A stretch of 63,958 nt of DNA, the filler included, from Fonticula-like sp. SCN 57-25 (taxonomy: Eukaryota): NCBI GenBank assembly GCA_001724245.1. It is 6 parts of 6 records of this genome, joined end to end, with 100 filler letters (N's around TTAATTAATTAA, not from the genome) between each part and the next. Parts side by side here need not be neighbours in the genome. Positions count along the whole stretch, not along the records: positions 43,311 to 53,808 come from MEDX01000231.1; 5 more parts are not named here. One strand, given 5' to 3'. The notes under the pieces are model-generated. The model saw only the letters and a list, made by a program, of their open reading frames with translations. It did no database searches and was not told the DNA's origin. The translations under genes were made by a program, and so were the position numbers. Below are positions 7,473-61,668 of this stretch, piece by piece. The stretch's first letter is position 1, and every line of letters starts with the position of its first letter.

Positions 7473-7821
7473 TGGTGCTCCAAAATTGCGTCAAAACAAG
7501 TTGACGATCGGAAACGAGTGGGTTCCTGGCAACCACGACGAAACGCCCTGCGTCGCGCCCTGCGGCGAACGCGCGTCGTCACCCCCGGACAAGATGAACC
7601 CGACCGTCAAGTGAGGAGAAAAAAGACTGTGCGCACAGGCTCCGTGTGCGTCACACCTCACCCTGCAAGCACCGACGACGGTCGGGGGATTGTTTTGCAT
7701 CGCCACACCCGACTCTGCCCCTGCACATTCTCCCTTGATCGCGATCGATTCGATCAATCGCGATCAGCTCTGCTGACACACACTTTTGCCGACGGCTCTC
7801 TGACGGCTCTGCAAGGGGGGC

Positions 7822-9478
7822 ATGCGCGCTCGTGTGCTCGCTGCAGTGTTGCTGCTGGCGGCCGGCGCCGTCGCGTCGGTCAGCGTGCCTTCGTCGGCTT
7901 ACTTTGTCGAGACGTTTGACGACTCGTGGGAATCGCGCTGGACGCGGAGCAGCGCGCTCAAGCACAGCGACGGCGAGGAGCTCAAGTATGAGGGTACACT
8001 AAGCATGTTCGCCGCATGCCATTGCTCACTGATCTTTTTCTTAGGTGTGTGGGCTGTGGAGGAGCCCTCTGTGTACCCCGACGGCACCGGCGACAAGGGC
8101 CTTGTGATGAAGAGCGCCGCTCGCCTCCACGCGATCAGCGCCAAGCTCCCCACTCCCATCACCGACTTTGGCACCGAGTTTGTCGTGCAGTACGAAGTCA
8201 AGACGCAGGACGGCCTCGAGTGCGGCGGCGCGTACCTCAAGCTCATCAGCGCCTCTTCCGATTTCTCGCCCTCCTCCTTTGGCGGCGACACCCCCTACAC
8301 CATCATGTTTGGCCCCGATCGCTGCGGCCCTTCCGACCGCGTCCACTTTATCCTTCGCCACCTCAACCCCCTCACGAATCAGTACGAAGAAAAACTGCTC
8401 GACGCGCCGCCGCGCACGCCTTCCACCAAGACCTCAACCCTCTACACGCTCGTCGTCCGCGGCGACAACACCGCCGAGATCTTTATCAACGGCGAGTCCG
8501 CCCGCAGCGGCTCCCTCTTTGACATGTTTTCGCCGCCCGTGAACCCGCCGGCGACCATCGACGACCCGACCGACTCCAAGCCGGCCACGTGGGAGGACGA
8601 GCCGCGCGTCCGCGACCCCGCCGCGCGCAAGCCCGACGACTGGGACGAGTCGCAGCCGGCCGAGCTGCCCGACATGACCGCGACCAAGCCCGAGGGCTGG
8701 CTCGACGACGAGCCGCTGTACGTGGCCGACCCGGAAGTGGCCAAGCCCGACGACTGGATTGACGAGGATGACGGCGAGTGGGAGGCGCCCGTCGTGGCCA
8801 ATCCGCGCTGCGAAATTGGCTGCGGCGAGTGGAAGCGGCCGACGGTCCGCAACCCGCTCTACAAGGGAAAGTGGCTCGCGCCCTACATCGACAACCCAAA
8901 GTATGTCGGGCCGTGGAAGGCGAAGCAAATTGCAAACCCGGATTACTATCACGACGACGCGCCGCACAAAATGACACCCATCGTACGCTGCCCACGTGAC
9001 TAAACACCCCAAAACTAAACTTTTTCCTATTCAGGGCGCCATCGGATTCGAGCTCTGGACCATGCAGGGCGACATTCTCTTTGACAACATCTTTATCGGC
9101 TCGAGCCTCGCCGACGCCCGCGCGTTTGCCGAGGCCACGTGGCGGCCGCGTCACGACATTGAAGCTGGCCTCGAGGCCGCTGCCGAGGGCGTCGTCGGCC
9201 CATGGGGCTTTGCCTATGCCGAGCTAAAGGCATTTGCCGGAGAAGTGTTTGTGGATCCGATTGGTGCGGCGAAGCGCCACGTGGGCGCTGCGACGGTGGC
9301 GGTTGTTATGCCGCTTCTGATTGGTCTGATTGTGGTGCTCATGAGGACGACGGGTGGGGATGGGCTCGTGAGGCCGGCACGTGACAGGCGGGTGGCAGAA
9401 GAGGAAAAAGAAGAAGAAGAAGAAGAAGAGGAAGAAGTGGAAGAGGAAAAGGATGAAAAGGAAAAGAAGAACGACTAA
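7822..9478 (+). CDS. CANX: Calnexin
   Basis: Signal peptide, GLECGGAYLKL, IMFGPDRCG, P-domain KPxDWDE repeats, IGFELWTMQ, TM segment and acidic tail. Introns near 7994-8044 and 8983-9034. Confidence 0.95.
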
Positions 9479-10561: not shown

Positions 10562-10661
10562 NNNNNNNNNNNNNNNNNNNNNNNNNNNNNNNNNNNNNNN
10601 NNNNNTTAATTAATTAANNNNNNNNNNNNNNNNNNNNNNNNNNNNNNNNNNNNNNNNNNNN
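10562..10661. other. Artificial contig linker
   Basis: N44-TTAATTAATTAA-N44, giving stops in all six frames. Confidence 0.98.
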
Positions 10662-12478
10662 CAAGTGGAACCTGACTGGCACGCCGCTGCAGAACCGCAT
10701 TGGCGAGCTGTACTCGCTCATCCGCTTCATGGACGTTTACCCGTACAGCTACTACTTTTGCAGGCAGTGCGACTGCAAGAGCCTCTCGTGGAAGTTTCAC
10801 AACCACTCGGCATGCGTCGAGTGTGGCCACAAGCCTCACTAGTACGTTTAGAGGGGTGAATTTTGGGTGGTATTTGTGTCATTTCATGTCATTTTATGAC
10901 ATTTTTTGGTACTTTTGGTACCATTTCATGTCATTTCGTGCCATTTTGTGTCACTTTTCATGTCGTTTCATGTCATTTTTGTGCCATTTTTGTCATTTCT
11001 TATGCCCTTTCTCACCTTCTCTTCTCTTTTCCAGTCACTTTTGCTGGTGGAACAGCGAAATTCTCCGCCCCTTCCAGCGCTTTGGCTCTGAAGGCTACGG
11101 CCGCGTCGTCTTCTCCCGCCTCAGCGTCTTCTCCCGCCTCAGCTCGCTCCTCCAGCGCATCATGCTGCGCCGCACCAAGCTCGAGCGCGCCGCCGACCTC
11201 GGCCTGCCCCCGCGCGTCTCGTACCTCCGCACGCACTTTTTCAACGCCGAAGAAGAGGATTTTTACCGCGCGCTCTACTCGGAAAGCCGCACTCAGTTTG
11301 CGTCATACGTCGAGAACGGGAGCGTGCTCAATAATTATGCGCACATTTTCGAGCTGCTGATGCGCATGCGGCAGGCGGCGAACCACCCGTACCTCGTGAC
11401 GCACAAGGCGGGGGGGAGCACGGCGGGGGGGGGGGGGGGGNNNNNNNNNGGGGGGGGGGGGGAGGGTGTGTGGCATTTGTCAGGACCAGGCGGAGGACCC
11501 GGTGCAGGCGTCGTGTAAGCACGTGTTTTGTAGGGAGGATATTAGAATGTATCTGGGGAGTGCAGTCGCAAACGCAACGTGCCCGGTTTGCTTTAGGTAC
11601 GAAAGAGTGAATTTTGGTTGAAATTGGGTTGAAATTGGGGTTGAAATTGTGTGCATTTTGGTGCAAATTTGACACTTTTAGGTGCATTTTTGTCATTTCT
11701 GGTGCATTTTTGTCATTTTTGTCACATTTCTTTTTATGATTTTTGTTACTTTTGCCGCATTACTGACACTACTTGTAGGCCCTTTACTGTTGATCTGTTC
11801 CAGCCTGCCCTTGCCACTTCCCGCGAGGAAGCCCGCGCGAGCGCCTCGCACCGCCGCTCAATTATGAACCGCATTCAGCTCGACCGCTGGAAAACCTCTT
11901 CCAAAATTGAAGCCCTTCTCGAAGAACTTTCCAATATCCGCGACGCGCGCCCCGCCTTTGACACGTGCTCGCAGTCACCTGGCTCGGCCGCGCCCGCCTC
12001 GGCCGCCGCCGCGAGCATAAAGTGCATTGTATTTTCCCAGTTTGTCTCTTTCCTCGACATTATTGAGTGGCGCCTGCAGCGCGCCGGCTTCCGTACAGTC
12101 AAGCTCGACGGCACGATGACGCCGCAGCAGCGCGATCTGATCATTGAGGCGTTCACGACCAACCCGCGCGTGCAGGTTTTCCTCATTTCGCTAAAGGCGG
12201 GCGGTGTGGCGCTGAATTTGACCGAGGCGAGCCACGTGTTTCTTATGGACCCGTGGTGGAACCCGGCGGTGGAGGCGCAGGCAATGGACAGAATTCATAG
12301 GCTGGGGCAGTACAGGCCAATTCAGATCAAGAGGCTGATCGTCGAGAATTCGATCGAGGCGAGAATCGTGCAGCTGCAGGAAAAGAAGAATCTGATGTTT
12401 CAGAGTACCGTCGGGATGGACGTCGACGCGCTTAGCAGGCTCACGCTGGAAGATCTCAACTTTTTGTTTGTCATGTAG
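10662..12478 (+). CDS. RAD16: Rad16-type SNF2 helicase with RING finger, 5'-partial
   Basis: LTGTPLQNRIGELYSLIRF with Cys-rich insert, IMLRRTKLERAADLGLPPR, LNNYAHIFELLMRMRQAANHP, RING exon, and SLKAGGVALNLTEASHVFLMDPWWNPAVE. Confidence 0.92.
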
Positions 12479-18218: not shown

Positions 18219-21200
18219 TTACTCAAAGCCGTTAAGCTTTGTGGCGATGGTGTTCATGTTGGGGCGCCTTCCAGCGTTCTCAATCATGGTGCTCTGGATG
18301 ATGGAGCGGACGACGATGCGCATGCCGTCCATGTTGTCGTCATTCTCGACCTCCTCGGGCAGCTGCAGCAGGTCGAGCGCGGCCGACGCCTTGATGATCT
18401 GCTGCGTGGTGCAGTTGGCCCACGGAGCGCGGCGAGTGTACATCTCCCAGCAGACAACACCAAACGAGTACACGTCGCTGGCAATGTCCTCCTCGAGCGT
18501 GGCGGGCTCGTTCTCAGACTCGGCGCGCGCGATAAGCTCGGGCGAGGCGTAGCGAATGGCGGTCTCGGACAGAGTCGCGGGGGTGGCGTCATCGCTGGAA
18601 AGGGGAAAAGGGGCGGTTAGCACCAATGAAATCAACGAAAAAGATGGTTTTCGTACTATGAACGGGCGTTGTTGAAGCCAGCAATGACCGGGATCGGGAA
18701 GTGGTCACCCGCGGCGGGCGACTGGAGGAGAATGACCGACGACGAGAGCGCGCGGTGGGCGATCTGCATCGAGTGAACCGCGTTGAGACCAGCCGAGATG
18801 CCCGCGGCGAGGTGCATGAGGAGCGTCGAATCGAGCATGTACATGGCCTCGTCGGGGTTGTGGAGGAACTGGGCGAGGTCCGTCTCGTAGATGCGCGTGA
18901 CGAGCGTGCGCGGCTCGTCCGTGTAGGCGACAAGCGCAATCACGTTGGGGTGGAACGAGAGCGACCACATGAGAGAGACCTCAGTGTGGAAGCGGTCGCC
19001 GTTCTCGCGCTGCGTCAGGTCGGCGCGGTCGACATAGTCGTAGACGGCCACGTCGCTCGTGCCAATGCGCTGGACAACATTCTGGTCGAGCAGCGTCGCG
19101 GCGTAGGCAACAAGGTCGCCGGTCGTTTCGAGCTGCGCGCCCGGCTGGATGCACGTCGGGTAGTCGAGCTGCAGGAAACCGGGCAGGGCAACCTCCATGA
19201 CAGTGTTGACAATGGTCTTGTCGGCAAAGGAAAGGTGAGTGGTCGACTCGGCGTGGCGCATGCTGCCGCGCGAGTTGGCGAGCGTCTTGCGGTACTCCTT
19301 GAGCACGTTCATCGCAGCGGCACCGCCAAACTCGTCGAGCGTAGAGTTCATCTTGGCGCGGCGGCGGCGGATGCTCACCACAATCACGACAAGCAGGATC
19401 AGGAGGAGGACAACGCCGCCGACGGTCGCGCCGGCAATGATGCTGCCGTTCGTGCCGAGGCCGGGGTCCTGCACAACGTTGGTCGTCGACGAGGCGGTCG
19501 TCATGATGAGGCGCGAGCCGACCTGCTCAGTGTCGTTGTCGCGGCCGGCGAGCACAAGGACCTCGTACGCCTGGCCGGGCTCGAGGCCCTCGACGGTGGC
19601 GCCGCCGGCAGTCGCGTCAACCTGGTGCGAGTAGGTGAAGCCGTCCGTCACGGCGCGCGACACCACGACCGAGCGGTAGTGGATCTCATAGTAGTGAGCG
19701 AGCGCAGAGGCGGTCCACGAGAAGGTGAGCGAGTCGGGCTTGGGCGTGTCGAGCTTGAGCGCGCCAGCGGGGGTAATGTACGTGGCCGTCTGGAGCATGG
19801 CGGGCGACGAGTCATCGTACTCGCCGTTCACGCCGATGCACACGCGGAACTGGTAGACGGTGTACGGGAAGAGGCCGCTCACGGTCACCGACTGCGACGT
19901 AAGGCCGACAGCCGCGCCGTCGTTGGCAATGACAAAGCTGCTGAGGCCCATGGCGACCTCGACGCGGAACGTCGCGTTGGCAGTCGCGTTGAGAGTGTCC
20001 CACTTGAGCGTGACCGAGTGCGACATCTTGGAGGTCCAGGTGAGGTTGGCAAGGTTGCCGCTCGACTCAATGGGCTCGAGCACGCAGGGGTTCGAGTAGG
20101 TGGCCTCCCAGGTGCCGTTGAAGTGGCACAGGCGGCTCGGCGGGCCGAGCTCGGACGGCATAAAGCCAGTCGCGCAGGTGCCGTTGGACTGCTGGCCGGG
20201 GGCGGCGGTCGGGAAGAAGGTCTGGCCGACCGACTCGGACGGGCAGTTGTCATACTCAATCTCGCACGGGTTCACAACGGCCGCGGCCCATACGCCGGAC
20301 AGGAGGCACTCGCGCGTCGGAGTGCCAATGTAGCCGGAAATGCAGAAGCCGACGGTGGTCTCGCCGGCGCGCGTCGCGTTCCAGACAGCGTCCTCGGCGG
20401 TGCCGCTCGGGCAGTACAGAGGCACGCACGGGCTCGAGATGTCGCTCCAGTTGCCGTCCTCGTCGCACGTGCGGGTGGGGGAGCCCTGGTAGCCCTGGGC
20501 GCAGACACCAGTGACGATCGGCGAAAGCGCAGCGGTGCGCGGCCAGTCAACAAAGCCCTCCTCAATGACGGGGCAGAAGAGCTGCTCGCAGGGGTTGACA
20601 ATGCTGCCCCAGGTGCCGTCAAGCTGGCACTCGCGAGAGGGGCTGCCGGCGTAGCCAGAGGCGCAGGTGCCGCTGGCAAACTCGCCAGCGACGGTCGCGG
20701 TCCACGAAACCTGGCCGCTGGTCTGGGCGGGGCAGAGGATCTCGGCGCACGAGCCAGACATGGCGCTCCAGGTGCCGTCAATCTGGCACGAGCGGGTGAC
20801 CGTGCCAAAGGTGCCGGCAGGGCAGGACCCCTGAACGTCGGCGGTGTTGGAGAAGGCCGACGGCCACGAGCCGGTGGCGTCATCAAAGGCAGGGCAGGTG
20901 ATGCGGCTGCACTCGTTGTTCACAGTGAGGGACCACTGGCCGAGCTCGGTGCAGTTGCGGCGAGGAGCGCCCTGCCAGCCAGCGACGCAGGTGCCGGAAA
21001 CGCCATACGTGAGCGAGTCGACGGTGGGCCAGTCGGCGTTGTGCGAGGTCGTGGTCGAGCACTGGAGGCGGCTGCAGGCGCCGGTCGTCGTGTCCCAGAC
21101 ACCGGTCGACAGGCACAGGCGAAGCGGCGTGCCACCAAAGCCAATCGTGCAAGAGCCAGAGGCGGTCGAGCCAGCGAGGGTGCTCGGCCACTCGGCATTC

Positions 21201-22006
21201 TCCGAAGTCTCGGCAGCGCACGACACCTGAGTACAGGTGCCGATAACGGCGCCCCACACAGCGTCAGAGCCGCACACGCGGGTCACGGTGCCGGTGTAGC
21301 CAGTAAGGCACGAGCCGGTGGCGGTGGCGCCAGCGGTGGTGACGGGCCACGAAGCAGAGTTGGCATTGCCGGCGGGGCACTTCTTCACCTCGCAGGGCGA
21401 CGAGACGGCGCCCCACTGGCCGGTAAGGCTGCACTCGCGCGTCGGGCTGCCCTCATAACCGGTAAAGCAAACACCAGTGGCGGTCTGGCCAGCCTGGGTC
21501 TCGGACCACGAGCTCTGGGCACCGTCGTTGCTGATGGCAGCGCACTTGATGGCCTGGCAGATCGGCGAGGGGGTGCCCCACGAGCCGGACAGGGTGCAGG
21601 TACGAGCGGTGGAGCCAGAGTAGCCGGGAAGGCAGGTACCGGTGGTCGAGAAGCCGGCCTGAACCTGGGCGGGCCACTCGGCGTTGAAGGGCGAGTAGCC
21701 GGGCGTGCTCGACGTGCAGTAGATGGGCTGGCACGGGTTGGTGATCGTAGTCGACCAGCGGCCGTCACCGTTGCACATGCGCTGAGGCCGCGGAAGCGTC
21801 GTGTCGTAGCCGGCCACGCACGTGCCATTCACGAGCTGGTCGACGGCATCGGGGCTATCCCAGTTGGCGTGCTGGTTGTTGGTGAGGGCGGGGCAGGGGT
21901 TGGTGCTGCAGGGGTTCCTGACCTCGGACCACGTGCCGTTGTAGAAGCAGTCGCGCGCCGGGAAGCCAGACGTGTTGTCGTAGCAAGCGCCAGTAACCTC
22001 AGAGTC
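18219..22006 (-). CDS. Single-pass receptor with at least 12 HRM-like Cys/Trp repeats, 2 FN3-like domains, TM and a TKL-like pseudokinase domain, 5'-truncated
   Basis: Repeats of about 54 aa with pattern C..W..T.AG...G.C..GY.G.P.R.C...G.W....C; TM IIAGATVGGVVLLLILLVVIVVSI followed by RRRR; kinase C-lobe RYASPE and SDVYSFGVVCWEM; HRD appears as HRA and DFG as AGF. Confidence 0.88.
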
Positions 22007-22106
22007 NNNNNNNNNNNNNNNNNNNNNNNNNNNNNNNNNNNNNNNNNNNNTTAATTAATTAANNNNNNNNNNNNNNNNNNNNNNNNNNNNNNNNNNNNNN
22101 NNNNNN
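22007..22106. other. Artificial contig linker
   Basis: N44-TTAATTAATTAA-N44. Confidence 0.98.
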
Positions 22107-32607: not shown

Positions 32608-32707
32608 NNNNNNNNNNNNNNNNNNNNNNNNNNNNNNNNNNNNNNNNNNNNTTAATTAATTAANNNNNNNNNNNNNNNNNNNNNNNNNNNNNNNNNNNNN
32701 NNNNNNN
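32608..32707. other. Artificial contig linker
   Basis: N44-TTAATTAATTAA-N44. Confidence 0.98.
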
Positions 32708-40486: not shown

Positions 40487-41240
40487 TTAAGCAGTCGCTG
40501 ACGCCGAGCCTGACTTGGCCGCCTCGGAAGCGAGCGAGTTTGCGAGCTGCTGGTCCGCCTCCTTGGCCTGTCTATTCTTCATCACGGCCTCGGCCACGTC
40601 CTTTGGCATATAATTCTCGTCGTGCTTTGCAAGCACCTCGGTAGCAAAAAAGGTGTTGTCATTCAGGAGATGGCCCTCGCACACAACGCCCGAGCCTTCC
40701 GCAAAGAGGTCGGGAACGATGCCGGCAAAGGTGACTTGCACTTCCTCGCTAGAGTCGCGCGTTAGGGAAAGACTCAAAAGAAACAGCAAAAACGTACTTG
40801 AGGTCAGTGACAGCAAAGGTAATGGCCGGCGGGTCGTTGACGTACTTGACGCTTTCCTCGCGCACGAGTCCGCCCAAGCGGAACCGCTTCGTCTGCTTGA
40901 GCTCCTCGCCTCGCTCCTTCACCTCGGTCGGCGTAATATAAAACATCAAATTATCCTGCAGGGCGTCCAGCAAAAAGAACAACGCCGTCCCGCTAGCGCA
41001 CAGCGCCGCGCCGATCGCCCAGAAACGCCGATTCCGGCGGCGCTCCAGGACATCGCTCACCATGCGGCGCTTCGAGCCAGGAACCTCGGTGGCCATCCGC
41101 CGCAATTGACTACCAAAACCCAAAACAGATATCCTCGTCCTCGTCATTGGAGCTGTTTGAGGCGCCGCCAGCAGAGACAGCGAGCGCGCCAGCGCAGGCC
41201 GGGCGAAGCCAGCCACGCGTCCGAGACCACGCAGCAGCAT
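40487..41240 (-). CDS. ccmE: Cytochrome c maturation System I heme chaperone CcmE with mitochondrial presequence (intron 40749-40797)
   Basis: N-terminal Arg/Ala/Leu-rich presequence, TM anchor, [35 protein letters not shown] and [14 protein letters not shown] (heme-binding HxxxY). Confidence 0.95.
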
Positions 41241-41327
41241 TCGGTTATCACACGAGGAGCTCGGGTGCAGGCTCGGGTGTACAGTCAGCACCAAAACCGA
41301 CCAAACCGACACTTTTGTATCGGCGCA

Positions 41328-43039
41328 ATGGCGAGCGATCGACTGGTCGCGTCGATAGGGAGTCTCGCCGTCTACAGCCCGGAATACGGTCTTACAGAGG
41401 AAACGGAGGATGAGAAGCTTTTGTTTTATTACCCCGATAGCGCATCCACAGATATTAAGTTGCGCCATGTCGGTCTCTGCGAGGCGATGGTGAACTTTAC
41501 GAGGTACCACCCGCCGCTGATTTCTGTTGTCCCTGCGTGCTAAACCGCCTGATGTCTAGAACGTTCTCGCCGGATAAGCCGTGTGAGTTTGTGCACACGA
41601 CGCATAATCGTCTAGTGTTTTTGAATCCCGAAGGCGAGTACTGGATCGTACTGGTACGTCATTACTCTTGTTTCGCCCATGGTTTCCCTGCTCACCCTCT
41701 GCATCCGGTCCACAGCAAGTTCGCCTTCCCGTTGTCAAGAACACGGGCAAGGAGGAGACCACAGAGTACGGCGAGACGGACGTTCAAAACTCTGCCATGA
41801 ATGCGATCCTTCGGCAGGCGTACCGCATGTTTAAGCTGTTCCACGGCACGTTCGAAGGTGTCGTGCGGCGATCCAACGTCGGCGTGCTTCGCGAGAAGCT
41901 GTCTAGCTTCTTTGCCGGCTACCTTCCCCGCATGGACTTGGAGGAAGCGGACCTGCTGAGCGCCCTCGACGGTATTCACTTTCTCCCGCTTGACAAGTCG
42001 CTCTACCTGCGCGTGCAGTCGGTCATCAACTACACTGAGCAGGCCTTCCCCGACATTTCCTACACCTGCTTCTTTTACACGCATCATTTAGCCTGGTCCG
42101 GCTTGGAACAGGACGACATTCGCGTGCTCTACCGCTACCTTAACACGGCCCTGGCGCCTGCGACGGGGCGCCGCGAGGAGGATGCGCAGCAGGGAAAGAA
42201 GCGCGCGCCAGTCTTTGGCCGGCAGGACGCCTTGTACGCACGCGGCAACTCACAGAAAACGATGTTTCCTTGCTTACATTGCTCTGATAGCTTTGTTATG
42301 GGCGCCGAGAACTTGAACGAGCGCGACGCGCCCGTGAACCCGCAGCGCGTGTACGTCGGGACGGACTCGTGCGAGCACCACCTCATCATCTTTCAGGTAC
42401 GCTGCTCAGCATCTGCATGCACAGTGAAATCTGACGCGACGTGCCTGCAGCTTGGTGACGTCACAATGGTATTTTTGCTTGCTGCGACGTCGGCGTCAAT
42501 GTCCAAGGTCGTCGACAGCAACTATTACAAAGCGCTCTACACGCACCTGCGGCCGCAGCTGAGCGAGCTGAATACGCTCATCGGTCGCCAGCAGGCACGG
42601 AAACCTCTGTACGTCTGCGATTACGCTTATTTTTATTATGAGGCTAACAAACTTGCGGTAGGCCGGAGAGTCCGTATCGGTACATTTACTTTAACCACAT
42701 GAACCTTGCCATCAAGGCCACGCTTGGCGACCCCCGGTCGTCCACGATCAAGGACGCTCTCAAGATTCTCGGCGAAATGCACGAGGACTTTGAGCAGTCC
42801 AGGGACACGATGACTGAAATGTGCGTAAAGTCGCACAATGACGTGTGGATTGTCGGGAGGCGCTCGGACCAGCGCGAGTTTTACGTCATTATCAGCAAGA
42901 AGGACGCGTCGCTGGTCGAGATTAACGGTACGCGGCCTGCAGGAATGTATTTTCGGGTGCTAACACGCAGCGCGACGCTGTTTTAGATGAGGTCAAGAAG
43001 CTGTGCTCGACCCAGTTTGCAAACATCTTCTTGGATTAA
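41328..43039 (+). CDS. CCZ1: Vacuolar fusion protein CCZ1 (Mon1-Ccz1 Rab7 GEF), multi-exon
   Basis: EKLLFYYP...VGLCEAMVNFTR, YRMFKLFHGTF, GIHFLPLDK, YIYFNHMNLA and WIVGRRSDQREFYV. Confidence 0.92.
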
Positions 43040-43210: not shown

Positions 43211-43310
43211 NNNNNNNNNNNNNNNNNNNNNNNNNNNNNNNNNNNNNNNNNNNNTTAATTAATTAANNNNNNNNNNNNNNNNNNNNNNNNNNNNNNNNNN
43301 NNNNNNNNNN
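43211..43310. other. Artificial contig linker
   Basis: N44-TTAATTAATTAA-N44. Confidence 0.98.
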
Positions 43311-43441
43311 TACGTCGGCAGCAGCACAAAGAGATTGGCCTTGCCGAGCAGATCGGCTGCCACGGCCACAATGCCTACGCCGACTGCGAGCACCAAAAAG
43401 AGAATGAAGAGGACATAGACGCGCTGCCTCTGTCGTCGCAT
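43311..43441 (-). CDS. 5' fragment of a probable type II membrane protein
   Basis: Basic N-terminus MRRQRQR followed by a hydrophobic signal-anchor, truncated at the contig end. Confidence 0.45.
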
Positions 43442-43499
43442 GGCTACTCCGGCATGTGGTGACGCCCGACTAGGTCAAAAAGGAAACAAACGATTGAAG

Positions 43500-43506
43500 A
43501 AAAAAA
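43500..43506 (-). terminator. RNA polymerase III oligo-T terminator of the tRNA gene
   Basis: T7 run on the minus strand shortly 3' of the discriminator base. Confidence 0.75.
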
Positions 43507-43514
43507 GGATCAAT

Positions 43515-43631
43515 TGCTCGAGGGGAGGATCGAACTCCCGACCTCTGCGTGCCCAACGGGGTTGTGACACCCCTGTACATATATGTTCGCATATATAAGC
43601 ACAGCGCTCTAACCAGCTGAGCTACACGAAG
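43515..43631 (-). tRNA. trnI-UAU: tRNA-Ile(UAU) with 43-nt intron (43551-43593) and mismatched acceptor-stem 5' end
   Basis: A box TAGCTCAGCTGG, anticodon arm CTGTG-CTTATA^A-CGCAG, intron at the canonical 37/38 position, T arm GGGAG-TTCGATC-CTCCC, 3' strand CTCGAGC-A, and oligo-T about 8 nt downstream. Confidence 0.92.
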
Positions 43632-43763
43632 GAAAAATTCTGCCAATAATTGTACTTGAACCTACTGCGCGATTGCACACTTTGCCGGCCAGTTTGCACC
43701 TCGATTACGCGATAGCTGCGCGATAGTCCGACTTTGTCAAGCTAGCAAATTCACGGAGTAGAA

Positions 43764-44621
43764 ATGGGTGCGATTGGATTCTTGGGAGGAGGCCAGATGG
43801 CCACCGCTCTTATCAAGGGCATTGTCAAGGCGAACCTGCGTCGCGCCGACCAAATTCACGTCTTTGACACGTCCAAGGCGCAGACCGAGGCGAACGCTGC
43901 TTTCGGATGCAAGATTGCCTCGTCTGCCGTCGAGCTGACAAAGGCGTGCAACGTGCTGGTCATCGCTGTCAAGCCCGACGTTGTGCCCAAGGTACGCGCG
44001 TCTGCATATTTGCGAGCTTTCTAAAATTTTCTTTGAAAGGTTCTGTTGGAGATTGCTTCGGTGCTCACTGCCTCGCACTTGCTCATCTCGATTGCCGCTG
44101 GCATCACCCTGGCCGCCATCGAGGCCAAGGTCCACACGAGCGTCCGCGTTGTGCGCGTCATGCCCAACACCCCCTCTCTTGTCGGACAGGGCGCGACGGC
44201 CATTGCCCTTGGCAAGTACGCGTCGCGCGAGGACGAGGCTTTCGCCCTCGAGCTGTTCAACGCGGTCGGCAGCGCGTACGCTGTGGAGGAAAAGGTCCTC
44301 GACGCCGTCACCGGTCTGAGCGGAAGCGGCCCCGCCTACGTGTTCCTGTTCATCGAGGCGCTTGCCGACGGCGGCGTCCGTGCCGGTCTGCCGCGTGCGG
44401 TGGCTCTTGCCCTGGCCGTCCAGACGGTCAAGGGCGCCGCCACCATGGTACAGGAGACCGGCGTGCACCCCGGCGAGCTCAAGGACCGCGTGACGTCCCC
44501 CGGCGGAACCACCATCACCGGTGTCCACGCACTGGAGCGCGGCGGATTCCGCGGCACCGTCATGGACGCCGTCATGGAGGCGTCCAAGCGGTCGGCCGAG
44601 CTCGGCAACCCCAAGCTCTAG
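43764..44621 (+). CDS. proC: Pyrroline-5-carboxylate reductase (one short intron)
   Basis: IGFLGGGQMA, IAVKP, SIAAG, VRVMPNTP, LSGSGPAY and VTSPGGTT. Confidence 0.97.
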
Positions 44622-44794
44622 GTTAACCCAACCTGCCACTTCATATTGATGCCTGACAGCGACATTTTCATGTTGCTCGTGCACGTATGGGGTTGCTATA
44701 TTCATCATTCAAGGCACTTTATTCAATCACTGCATCACCATCAATAAAGACTGCATTTTAACACATTATGTACACAAAAAGTTTGGGCGATGCT

Positions 44795-46812: not shown

Positions 46813-48631
46813 ATGGCCGCGTTTCTGGTTGCGGCGGGCCGTAGCGGGGCAAGCCGCGGTCTCACCCTATCCGCGAGACGATATGCATCGGCAGTGTCAG
46901 AGCCTGCGCCGAGCACATCCCTTGTGCGCAAGTATTGGCCGATCGCGTTGGGTGCCGTCGGCGTCACCGGCGGCGTCCTCACCTTTACAGATTCTGGCCG
47001 TGCGTACGCTGCGATGATGGGGCGCGCTGGCCTCACGGGCTCCGTTGGCGCTGCAATTGTGGCGGACTACAAGTGGTCGCTGTACGGCGAGAGTAGAAAG
47101 GATGACGCGGTGTGGTCCAAGGTGCATGCGCGATCGGCCGAGCGCCTGCTTTGGCTCTTCCGTAGCCTTGGCGGCGTCTACATCAAGATCGGACAGCACA
47201 TGGCGGCGCTCGAGTACTTGCTTCCCCGAGAGTACACGCAGACGATGGCTGCCTTGCAGAACGACGCGCCGCAGAGCCCGTTCGCCGCCGTCGAGCGCGT
47301 CATTCACAGCGAGTTTGACAAGCCAATCAGCGAGATTTTCGCCACGTTCGACCCTACGCCTATCGCCTCGGCGTCGTTAGCGCAAGTCCACCGTGCAACG
47401 CTTTTGGACGGCCGTGAAGTGGCCGTCAAGGTGCAGCACGAAGCTCTCAAGAGGGACGCGCCGACCGACCTTCTCGCGGTAAACTCGTTTGCAAAGATTG
47501 TTCGCTGGCTGTTCCCCGACTTTTCGCTTGATTGGCTCGCGGAGGAGGTTCGCGTCGGACTGCCCAAGGAGCTTAACTTTGTTCAGGTACGCATGAAGTC
47601 ATAATATGTCGTGTTCTGATCCCTCGAGACAGGAGGGTGCCAATGCGGACCGCGCGCGCGTCATGTTTGCGCATCGCAAAAACCTCGTCATCCCCGAGAT
47701 CTTTTGGCCGCTCACTAGCTCGCGCGTCCTTATCATGGAGTTTATTCACGGTGCCAAGGTGACCGATCTTGGCTACCTTAACAAGCACAAGATCGACCCG
47801 CGCCTCGTTGCGACCACCTTTAACGACCTCTTTGGCGAGATGATTTACACGCGCGGGTTCGTGCACGCCGACCCTCACCCGGGCAACGTCTACGTCCGCT
47901 CCAAGGAGCCCACCAGGTCCTGGTGGAACTGGCTCTTTGGCGGGAAATCCAGCAACTTTGAGCTGGTGTTGTTTGATCACGGCCTGTACCGCGAGCTGTC
48001 GGACGACTTTAGGCTCAACTATGCGCACCTGTGGCTGTCGATTATTAACGGTACGCAACGCAGGGTCTTTTTTATGTATTGGCTGACCAGTGATGCAGGT
48101 GACGAAAAGGGCATCAAGCACTACAGCAAGGAACTCGGTGCCGGCGACCTTTACAGGTTGTTCACCGCCATGCTCACCGCCCGCGTCTACGACTCTGTCG
48201 TTTCCACCGACGGCTCCAACAACAACCTGAAAAAGCCGCGCAGCGAAGCCGAGACAAAGCTCATGATGAACACCGCGTCAAACTACCTCACCGATGTGAA
48301 CACGATCTTCGGCAGTATTCCGCGCGAGCTCCTCCTCGTGCTCAAGACGAACGACCTCGCGCGCTCTGTCGAAAACACTTTATTGGTACGATGCGTCTGA
48401 TGCAACTGTATGTACTCACCGGCTTTGCCCGAGCAGCAAGACGGCGGTCTGCGCTCCTACGCCCAGATGGCGCGCTACTGCGTCGACACCATCTACGAGA
48501 CCGAGATCAACGACGAGTCGCGCGACTGGAAGAGCCGCGCCGGCGCGTGGGTCGACTACCAGCGCGCCGTGTTCCGCCTGTGGGTGGTGGACGCTGTGCT
48601 CGCGGCAAGCTCCTACTTTAAGAGGGCTTGA
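46813..48631 (+). CDS. ADCK1: ABC1/UbiB atypical kinase (ADCK1/Mcp2-like), mitochondrial
   Basis: Presequence, GGVYIKIGQH, ASASLAQVH, VAVKVQH, FVHADPHPGN and FDHGLY. Confidence 0.9.
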
Positions 48632-53808: not shown

Positions 53809-53908
53809 NNNNNNNNNNNNNNNNNNNNNNNNNNNNNNNNNNNNNNNNNNNNTTAATTAATTAANNNNNNNNNNNNNNNNNNNNNNNNNNNNNNNNNNNN
53901 NNNNNNNN
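53809..53908. other. Artificial contig linker
   Basis: N44-TTAATTAATTAA-N44. Confidence 0.98.
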
Positions 53909-58881: not shown

Positions 58882-61668
58882 ATGGCGCAGAATCCGAGCT
58901 TTGCCAAGCTCATCGAGGTCGTCCGGCGGGACGATCCCGAGACCAAGTATGAGGTTCTCGTGGAGATTGGTCAAGGCAGCTTTGGATCCGTGTACAAGGC
59001 GAGAGATCGCGAGACAGGCGCCATTGTCGCTATCAAGAAAATGACCTGCAGCCCAGAACAGTCGAGTGATGTACGTTTTCCCTTTGTTTTCGTTTGATTT
59101 TTGAGCGGCGAGCGGCTGACACATGCGGCAGGAATTGGATGATATTCGGAAAGAAATTGAGTTTATGGCATCTCTCGATCACGAGAATATTATCAAGCAT
59201 TGTGGTAGTTTTTTGAAAGGCAATACTGTTTGGGTTGTGATGGAATTTTGCATGGGGTCTGTTGCGGACATTTTGGAGGTGTTCAAGGCGCCGCTTCAGG
59301 AGGCCGAGATCGCCGCTGTCCTCGCCAAGGTAGTTGAGGGTCTTATTTTCCTCCACTCCAAGAAGCGCATTCACCGCGACATCAAGGCGGCCAACATTCT
59401 CATGACGAGTCGCGGCAAGGTCAAGATCGCCGATTTTGGCTCTGGCTCGATGAGCGATCCCGCCAACACGTTTGTCGGCACGCCCTGCTGGATGGCGCCC
59501 GAAGTCATTCTCGCAATGGAGTCGGGGCTGTATAGCTGCAAGGCCGACATTTGGTCGCTCGGCATCACTGCCATCGAGCTCGCCGAGCGCAAGCCGCCGC
59601 TCATCGAGATGAACACGATGAGCGCGCTGTACCACATCCCCGAGAAGCCGCCGCCAACGCTCAAGAAGCCCGCCGCGTGGTCGAATGAATTTTCCGACTT
59701 TATCGAGAGCTGCCTGCGCAAGGACCCCGAGCAGCGCCTCACCGCGGCCGAGCTGCTGCAGCACCCGTTCCTCCAGAACGACAAGGCCAACCACAACCGC
59801 ACGCTCAAGCTGCTCGTCCGCCGCTCAAAGAACGCCGCGTCGCTCGACACGGGCGAGCCGATCGTGTTCGAGGCGCCCGTCGCCGTCGCTGCACCCGCTG
59901 CCGTGGCCGCGCCGACGCCCCTCGCGTCCACCGTGAGCATGGACGAGGACGGCACCGAGGACACTGAGGAGCTCAGGAAGCGCCGCCGCAACCAGAGCAA
60001 GCCCGCCAAGAAGGACAAGGCGGCCGACGGCGACGCTGCCGCGCCCGCCGCCACCCCCACTGCCTCGCCCGCGCGCTCCGCGATGCCATCGCACCTTGCC
60101 GCGCCGCTGAAGCGCGACTCGTTTGCGAATCTCGCCCCCAGCGACGCGAACCACACCCCCCGCCGCGGCGCGCATGAGCGCATGGCGTCGGTCGTGAGCG
60201 TCGAGAGCAACATTGTGAGCGACTTTCACCTCAATGACAGCGCGAATGACGCGTGGGAAGCCGAGAATCACGACCAGACGATACGCCCCGTCCGCCGCGC
60301 GACCGAGATGGCCGAGAATGACAACAATGCCAAGGCGCAGCTCAAGGAGCTCAAGGGTCTTCAGATGGCGCAGCAGAAGCAGACCAAGCAGCTGCTCAAG
60401 ACGCAGGAGGCGAACCTTGCCGAGTACCGCCGCCAGATCGAAAAGGACCTCGAGGCCGAGTCCAAGCAGCACTCTAACGAGATTGACAAGCTGCTCGCGC
60501 GGCTGCGCAGCGAGATGGAGGCGTTCCAAAAGTCGCAGGCGACCGAGTGGAAGTCGTTCCGCAAGGAGCAGCAGAGCCGCGCCAAGACCGAAGTGAAGGA
60601 GAATGCCCGCGTGATCAAGGCGGCCGTCAAGGAGAAGGAGAAGGCGTTCAAGGAGGCGCTGTCGCGCGTGACCGACAAGGCCGAGAAGAAGGCGCTCAAG
60701 GAGTCGCAGGAGAAGGAGCTCGCGGCGTTTGTGCAGCAGTCGCAGGACGAGTTTGCCGCGCAGCAGCAGTTTAGACAGGAGGAAGAGGCCCGCAAGCGCG
60801 CCATTGCGATGAGCCACGACCTGCACGCCGTCGAGATCCGCCACAGCGACTCTGAGACTGAGCGGCGGCGGATGGCGCGCGAGGTCAATGCCAAGCACCG
60901 CCAGAGCAACCTCGACCTCGAGGGCCGCAAGCTGCTCGAGCAGCTCCGCGAGCGCCACGAGCTCATGCAGACGCAGCAGGGCAAGAAGCTGCTCACAGAG
61001 GCAGAGTCGATGCAGCAGCAGCAGAAGAAGCGCGAAAAGGACCTCGGCAAGCAGCTCGCGCAGGAGGCCAAGAATCTGCCAAAGCACGTCAAGAGCGTCA
61101 AGGCAAAGATGGTGCGCGACAAGCAGGAGACGATCAGGATGACAAAGCAAAAGTTTGAGTCGCTCCAGAAGCGCATCGACGAGGATGAGGTGAGCAAGGA
61201 GGAGCGGAGGCGGCTCAAGGAGGAGCAGCGGCTCGAGATGCTCCGCGACGTCACGCGGACAGAGGCAGAATTCGACAAAAAGGTGCGTGAATTTGAACAG
61301 CAGCTTTGCAGTTTGCAGTTTGCTAACTTTATTTGCAGATTTCCGAGACGGTTGAGATTGAGACGACTGAATTTGACCATGCTCAGCGCGAGCTTCTTGA
61401 TGCTCTTGCCGCTCGCCACGAAAAAGAGCGCTCTGAGCTTGAAGCGTACCAAGTGGCGCGCCGTCGCAACCTTGTCGCTCAGCACGAGCGCGAGATGGCC
61501 TTGCTTGTTGCGAGCAACAAGAAGGCGTGGGAAGAGCTGGACAAGACGATCAAGGTTGATACCGACGCGTTCAATGCCACGGCGCAGCAGAATAGACAGG
61601 CGATGCTCGCGAGGCACAAGGAAGAGGACGAGCGCTTGCTACACAAAAAGTTTACCTTGGAAAAGTGA
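58882..61668 (+). CDS. TAOK: TAO-type STE20 kinase with long coiled-coil C-terminus (3' end approximate)
   Basis: GQGSFGSVY, VAIKKM, HRDIKAAN, ANTFVGTPCWMAPEVILAM, IELAERKPPL..MN.MSALYHI and a Q/E/K-rich coiled coil. Confidence 0.88.

Follow-up and report, generated by a model that had tools for sequence, protein, structure and literature searches.

A described counterpart of the defect reported here is found in mitochondria, where 5' tRNA editing is known from Acanthamoeba, Dictyostelium, Polysphondylium, Physarum and the chytrid fungi, and where, according to the review PMC4284800, it is confined to the first three pairs of the acceptor stem. The editing substrates covered there, from Acanthamoeba, Dictyostelium, Physarum, Spizellomyces and Monoblepharella, are repaired by Thg1-like 3'-5' polymerases and carry mismatches in the 5' strand of these three pairs opposite a 3' strand that can act as template, and the species differ in whether a G:U pair is edited. 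In the sections of this 2014 review cited here, 5' editing of this kind is not known for any nuclear-encoded tRNA, the G-1 of tRNA-His excepted, and some Thg1-like polymerases (TLPs) are predicted to be cytosolic, with substrates that are not known. [quoted passage not shown] A 2025 preprint (PMC12632743) credits the Thg1 family with three known biological functions and, in the portions cited here, nuclear tRNA repair is not among them. For tRNA-Ile itself, the identity elements given in the relevant part of a 2023 review (PMC9976931) are the discriminator A73 and the anticodon as strong determinants, together with C4-G69 and others in E. coli, and U30-G40 is listed as an antideterminant in yeast tRNA-Ile. 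Here we describe a nuclear-type gene for tRNA-Ile(UAU) in which the first two positions of the 5' strand do not match an otherwise regular tRNA.

When the whole window, by which we mean the complete stretch of 63,958 bases that was analysed, was searched with cmscan against Rfam, one tRNA was found, on the minus strand at 43631..43515. The match to RF00005 reached 40.3 bits (gathering score 29, E 4.7e-05) and covered the model completely, from 1 to 71. Finding a tRNA in a 64-kb stretch far exceeds chance expectation, as a 20-nt D-arm probe gave no matches in 100 shuffles. Position 1 lies at 43631 and A73 at 43515. The 5' exon of 38 nt (43594..43631, minus strand), as delimited by cmscan and a computed exon split, contains the 5' strand of the acceptor stem, the D arm with the A box, the 5' strand of the anticodon stem and the loop through A37, and in the cmscan alignment the anticodon UAU is located at 43597-43595. 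The 36-nt 3' exon (43515..43550, minus strand) was delimited in the same way, and comprises A38, the 3' strand of the anticodon stem, the variable loop AGGUC, the T arm with the B box, the 3' strand of the acceptor stem and A73. Pairing is complete in the D arm (4 pairs, 9-nt loop) as well as in the T arm (5 pairs, loop UUCGAUC); the anticodon arm likewise has all 5 pairs, one of them a U30-G40 wobble, and its loop reads CUUAUAA once spliced.

The two exons are separated by a 43-nt intron at the canonical 37/38 site (43551..43593, minus strand), which appears in the cmscan alignment as an insert following ...CUUAUA. Folding with fixed mature arms yields an 8-pair helix, in which the anticodon, together with the initial four bases of the intron, pairs with a segment further along the intron. 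A G in the intron, four bases upstream of the 3' splice site, could by its position in the sequence pair with C32, which is the arrangement expected for eukaryotic splicing. Direct reading, guided by the consensus forms of the A box and B box, identified the Pol III signals: both boxes are present, and a run of seven T residues (43500..43506, minus strand) starts 9 nt past A73. Such T runs are established Pol III terminators. On the other side of the gene, the 5' leader (43632..43645, minus strand) ends in ...UUUUUCC.

It is in the acceptor stem that this gene departs from the ordinary. The 5' strand reads CUUCGUG and the 3' strand CUCGAGC followed by A73, and the resulting pairs are C1xC72, a U2-G71 wobble, U3-A70, C4-G69, G5-C68, U6xU67 and G7-C66, of which cmscan marked only pairs 1 and 6 as non-standard. 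Yeast tRNA-Ile(UAU) also has the U6-U67 pair. The defect at positions 1-2 is a matter of the letters C1 and U2 in the 5' strand (43630..43631, minus strand); their partners in the 3' strand, C72 and G71 (43516..43517, minus strand), would template G1 and C2. The mismatch pattern at positions 1-2 is a single instance. The initial annotation had reported precisely this combination, i.e. a tRNA-Ile(UAU) with C1xC72 and U2-G71, Watson-Crick pairs at 3, 4, 5 and 7, a U-U at 6-67, a 3' strand that templates G1-C2, and a gene that is otherwise intact in its A and B boxes, its D, anticodon and T arms, its 37/38 intron and its T run, and cmscan and direct reading bear it out in each of these points. 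Upon inspection, no shifted register of the acceptor strands paired better, and a split or permuted tRNA does not fit, both halves being contiguous and in order.

For comparison, metagenomes were scanned with a pattern composed of the D arm and the UAU loop, which gave at least 120 loci, nearly all of them intron-less bacterial-type tRNAs. Neither the contig of the window itself nor a close relative was among the matches listed. Six intron-bearing tRNA-Ile(UAU) genes of eukaryote type, all on metagenome contigs (L015, L054, L082, L100, L102 and L115), were used as comparators. Three further candidates (L111, L028 and L035), in which the loop is followed by insert-like sequence, were dropped, as none of them matched the tRNA model at the gathering score, and L026, an intron-less Ile(UAU) gene with a standard stem, was kept outside the six. 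A search of a prokaryote genome collection with an exact 32-nt exon pattern returned 0 stretches.

The window gene has the D arm, the anticodon loop, the pairing of the anticodon with the intron, the intron placement at 37/38 and the Ile-type features A73, C4-G69 and U30-G40 in common with all six comparators, and it resembles one of them, L102, in having U6xU67. Positions 3-7 of its 5' strand are identical to those of L054, and the complete 5' strand of L054, GCUCGUG, differs from the window strand only in having G and C as its first two letters, exactly those that C72 and G71 would template. In contrast, a non-standard pair at 1:72 or 2:71, as represented by C1xC72 and the U2-G71 wobble in the window gene, is absent from all six, and the comparators score between 52.8 and 58.7 bits, which is 12-18 bits above the window gene.

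The structural weight of these differences was estimated from thermodynamic folds of the seven pre-tRNAs, calculated for unmodified RNA and ignoring base modifications, proteins and chaperones. In each of the six comparators, the 5' and 3' ends are paired with each other in both the minimum-energy and the centroid structure, which closes the acceptor stem, and the T arm is formed. The window pre-tRNA, in contrast, is predicted to fold with an open acceptor stem, leaving the first 4 and the last 5 bases unpaired (-43.3 kcal/mol, z -2.0). In this fold, ~11 pairs (within 43551-43631, minus strand) join the D-arm/A-box region and acceptor bases 5-8 to the intron's 3' end and the beginning of the 3' exon, a mispairing that occurs in none of the comparators and that may be due to chance or may be part of why the gene folds badly. 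For the spliced window RNA, the cloverleaf was calculated at -17.1 kcal/mol versus -22.1 kcal/mol for a minimum that is not a cloverleaf. Taken together, the lesion and U6xU67 leave 4 Watson-Crick pairs and 1 wobble of the 7 pairs in the acceptor stem.

The initial annotation had left room for an assembly error and had proposed that the start of the tRNA be checked against primary sequence data. This check was done on contigs, by aligning those of four metagenome runs (X1, X2, X5 and X6) to 43311-44400. Run X1, from a bioreactor, is possibly the source sample, and matches 0.99 of the sampled words of the stretch, parts of which are also present in about 20 other runs from 18 studies. A contig of 9,969 nt from this run (depth 16.5) covers the whole of 43311-44400, has identical letters at C1 and U2, and differs from the window only at 43450, 43468, 43469 and 43477, with no difference within the tRNA. 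These differences amount to three letters and one missing base, and are located downstream of the terminator. The second contig is from a separate study (X2; 268 nt, depth 3.5) and spans 43570-43848, and with it the 5' exon together with positions 1-2. None of its letters differs from the window, but 11 nt are deleted at 43708, upstream of the tRNA. The letters at positions 1-2 were thus reproduced in two of the four runs aligned, one of which is independent, and because the same letters are found in a contig from another study, an assembly error is now unlikely. In nearby DNA, the two strains are distinguished by the 11-nt indel and by ~4% divergence (6/158 letters). In X5 and X6 the tRNA was not covered by contigs of this organism; in X6 another, intron-less tRNA aligned across the gene, with a joint from 43545 to 43604 and 15 other letters between.

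A second contig over the 5' exon was not seen in X1 at 80% likeness, and as contigs show presence rather than absence, this gives a weak hint that a canonical copy is lacking. The X1 contig depth over 43496-43569 was 21.2 and 27.6 in two bins versus a baseline of 16.5, with no excess on the 5' exon. This excess indicates that other contigs share the region of the T arm and the 3' exon, and these can be either unrelated tRNAs or a second copy.

As to the host, open reading frames (ORFs) in the window match eukaryotic families, including calnexin/calreticulin, RhoGEF, a PH-domain protein kinase, an ion channel, ankyrin repeats, ABC1 kinase and MatE, as well as a CCZ1/INTU longin-domain ORF at 40614-42702, which is the immediate neighbour of the tRNA; the tRNA lies between this gene and an ORF at 43737-44708. 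The ABC1 kinase domain is found in two frames (profile 2-111 and 111-241) that are split exactly around a 46-nt GT..AG stretch (47587-47632, plus strand), and since the two halves flank this stretch, it fits a very short spliceosomal intron, as which the sequence can provisionally be read. The canonical 37/38 intron of the tRNA, the eukaryotic genes in the window and this putative 46-nt intron all agree with the view that the tRNA gene is nuclear in type. The calnexin ORF has one entry that is 100% identical and otherwise shows 48-57% identity to named proteins; among the 120 matches listed, the named proteins are all fungal (chytrids, zoopagomycetes, mucoromycetes, basidiomycetes and ascomycetes). 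The ABC1 fragment, an uninformative marker, gave 10 weak matches, with insects at 35-38% and Fonticula at 34%. With a calnexin that is 48-57% identical to those of fungi of all phyla, and weak ABC1 matches, the organism stays unplaced: it is a fungus-like eukaryote that is not assignable to any lineage in which editing of mitochondrial tRNAs is known. Of the 20 ORFs of the window that were scanned, none matched a Thg1 family.

A few other features of the window were recorded along the way. In a long receptor-like frame (18656-22054, minus strand), numerous cysteine-rich repeats with matches to the hormone-receptor (HRM) and Sushi models are combined with a transmembrane segment, two fibronectin type III domains and a protein-kinase domain that is weak, an architecture that is unusual for a fungus-like organism. 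This frame enters an N mask at 22007. Paired 44-base N masks are located at 10562-10661, 22007-22106, 32608-32707, 43211-43310 and 53809-53908, with a regular spacing of ~10.6 kb, and a distance of 205 nt separates one of these pairs from the tRNA's 3' end. A further 9 N are found at 11441-11449.

The demand for a tRNA that reads AUA was estimated by marking AUA codons in three clean ORFs with a total of 2,210 codons, in which the Ile codons were counted by hand. The receptor-like ORF (18656-22006, minus strand) has 38 Ile codons in 1,116 codons, none of them AUA; the kinase ORF (59120-61204, plus strand) has 28 in 695 codons, with a single AUA; and the calnexin ORF (7804-9003, plus strand) has 14 in 399 codons, again with no AUA. 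Of the roughly 80 Ile codons in these three window ORFs, AUA therefore accounts for 1. With its codon so little used, the tRNA-Ile(UAU) gene should be under weak selection.

The explanation that we favour, and to which we give roughly even chances of being correct, is that this is a genuine nuclear tRNA-Ile(UAU) gene with a 5' lesion that yields a weak or dead tRNA, and that the lesion is tolerated as AUA is nearly unused and perhaps another copy of the gene exists. The lesion could have arisen by substitution of both expected letters, G1 and C2, or, equally, by one 2-bp deletion. Had G1 and C2 been deleted, the last bases of the leader, C and U, would have slid into positions 1-2, and the leader would have been joined to U3; as they stand, the leader and positions 1-2 do read as a continuous leader running into U3. 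Since a single event at the edge of the gene would suffice, the coincidence of two hits at positions 1-2 has little force as an argument. The transcript, if made, would retain C1 and U2, and its stem is predicted to fold and mature poorly, so that the product would be a hypomorphic or dead tRNA. With AUA hardly used, and possibly with another gene copy elsewhere, such a defect could be tolerated. The data show the gene, its lesion in two samples, the weak predicted fold and the rarity of AUA; poor maturation and relaxed selection for tRNA-Ile(UAU) are what we infer.

The gene resembles tRNA pseudogenes and hypomorphic copies in its stem-breaking change and its lowered covariance-model score, and it belongs to a class, the nuclear tRNA genes, whose mutation rate is reported to be exceptionally high, as far as the cited part of the study goes (10.1101/2025.10.14.682033). 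It is unlike them in having one lesion only, with the promoter boxes, intron, terminator and isotype details intact, and in being common to two strains. A long-dead pseudogene should show scattered changes, therefore the pristine state of the gene outside positions 1-2 counts against a tolerated lesion, and the same applies to the age of the lesion, which is older than the split of the two strains. On balance, the indirect evidence on the lesion leans towards an ordinary defect rather than editing. If this is true, the case is a small example of a crippling 5' lesion in a tRNA gene of rare use, within a GC-rich genome nearly without AUA, and a caution that lone acceptor-stem defects in metagenome contigs are no evidence of editing.

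An alternative that we consider possible, although unlikely, is that the tRNA is functional as encoded, in other words that C1xC72 and U2-G71 persist in the mature tRNA, that IleRS charges it and that it serves the rare AUA codons, the fraying of the first pair being tolerated or a lineage-specific trait. Positions 1-2 are not listed among the Ile identity elements in the relevant part of PMC9976931, and all those named there are retained in the window gene. The stem evidently tolerates the non-standard U6xU67, which is also present in one comparator, the lesion is fixed in two strains, and the lack of a second 5' exon contig in X1 points, weakly, in the same direction. A natural, functional tRNA with 1:72 unpaired is the bacterial initiator tRNA (C1xA72), the mismatched 1-72 pair being treated in the relevant part of PMC9976931. 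There the mismatch is a recognition element, however, whereas the window tRNA is a eukaryotic elongator tRNA-Ile with a C-C clash. Against function as encoded speaks that none of the six comparators has a non-standard 1:72 or 2:71, and that, with U6xU67 included, the stem retains four Watson-Crick pairs plus a single wobble and no longer forms in the predicted fold. In yeast, tRNAs with a weak acceptor stem are open to 5'-3' decay, and bacteria use a 1:72 mismatch to keep the elongation factor off the initiator tRNA.

Very unlikely, in our judgement, is nucleo-cytosolic 5' repair or editing, in which C1 and U2 would be removed during or after 5' processing, and a Thg1/TLP 3'-5' polymerase would rebuild G1 and C2 opposite C72 and G71. 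The argument for it begins with the signature. The defects are confined to positions 1-2 of the 5' strand, the 3' strand is intact, and a restored G1 and C2 would make the 5' strand equal to that of L054. That mismatches at positions 1-3 are the mark of mitochondrial 5' editing, as the initial annotation had it, agrees with PMC4284800, which, in the part cited, describes exactly this signature in chytrid fungi and amoebozoans, with U:G being edited in some species. Cytosolic TLPs without a known tRNA substrate do exist, DdiTLP4 being the example treated in the cited parts of PMC5041481 and PMC6471195, and the intact remainder of the gene and the presence of the lesion in two strains also count in favour of repair. 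However, the mitochondrial substrates are organelle genes, usually many per genome, for which editing has been shown in RNA, whereas here we have one nuclear gene that is known from DNA alone. Editing of a nuclear-encoded tRNA, which the initial annotation believed to be undescribed, is indeed not reported in the cited portions of the reviews and papers from 2014 to 2025 (PMC4284800, PMC12632743), nor in any title or abstract among the matches listed in literature searches. The base rate is also unfavourable, as a scan of very large size can be expected to contain lone 5' lesions, and it was from such a scan that this case was picked. In addition, AUA is nearly unused, so that a broken gene can persist, and the organism is not placed in any editing lineage. 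If repair did take place, programmed 5' editing would for the first time be known outside organelles, and the orphan cytosolic TLPs would have a natural substrate, which would answer the question left open in the reviews as to the role of cytosolic Thg1-like polymerases and the existence of 5' editing beyond organelles. Several public metagenomes contain this organism.

A sequencing or assembly artefact at 43630-43631 is scarcely credible: the window does derive from a metagenome assembly, and the X1 Logan contig departs from it at four nearby places (43450-43477), but the X1 contig, at depth 16.5, and the X2 contig match all parts of the tRNA that they cover, including positions 1-2. Least credible of all is that the locus encodes a different tRNA, namely tRNA-Asn(GUU) with a 39-nt intron in the anticodon loop, which is what ARAGORN put out when introns were allowed, since this model calls for two bases separating the D stem from the anticodon stem, for G as the base at 37 and for a variable region of greater length, whereas in the Rfam alignment the insert falls at 37/38 and the anticodon is UAU, just as in the six comparators, A73 and U30-G40 are consistent with Ile, and the acceptor defect would in any case be identical. 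Its non-canonical geometry led us to reject the ARAGORN model; with default settings, this program reported no gene at the tRNA.

Finally, two observations concern the metagenome loci returned by the pattern scan. In two of them (L081 and L119), which have two pattern matches each, the 5' half of a tRNA with a UAU anticodon lies directly upstream of a complete, near-identical tRNA. Half-copies of this kind are left at tRNA genes by integrated elements. The scanned loci as a whole (L001-L120) are mostly intron-less bacterial-type tRNAs with a UAU loop, many of which have C1...G72, for example a group that starts with CCGCC..., and such tRNAs seem to be common in environmental bacteria.
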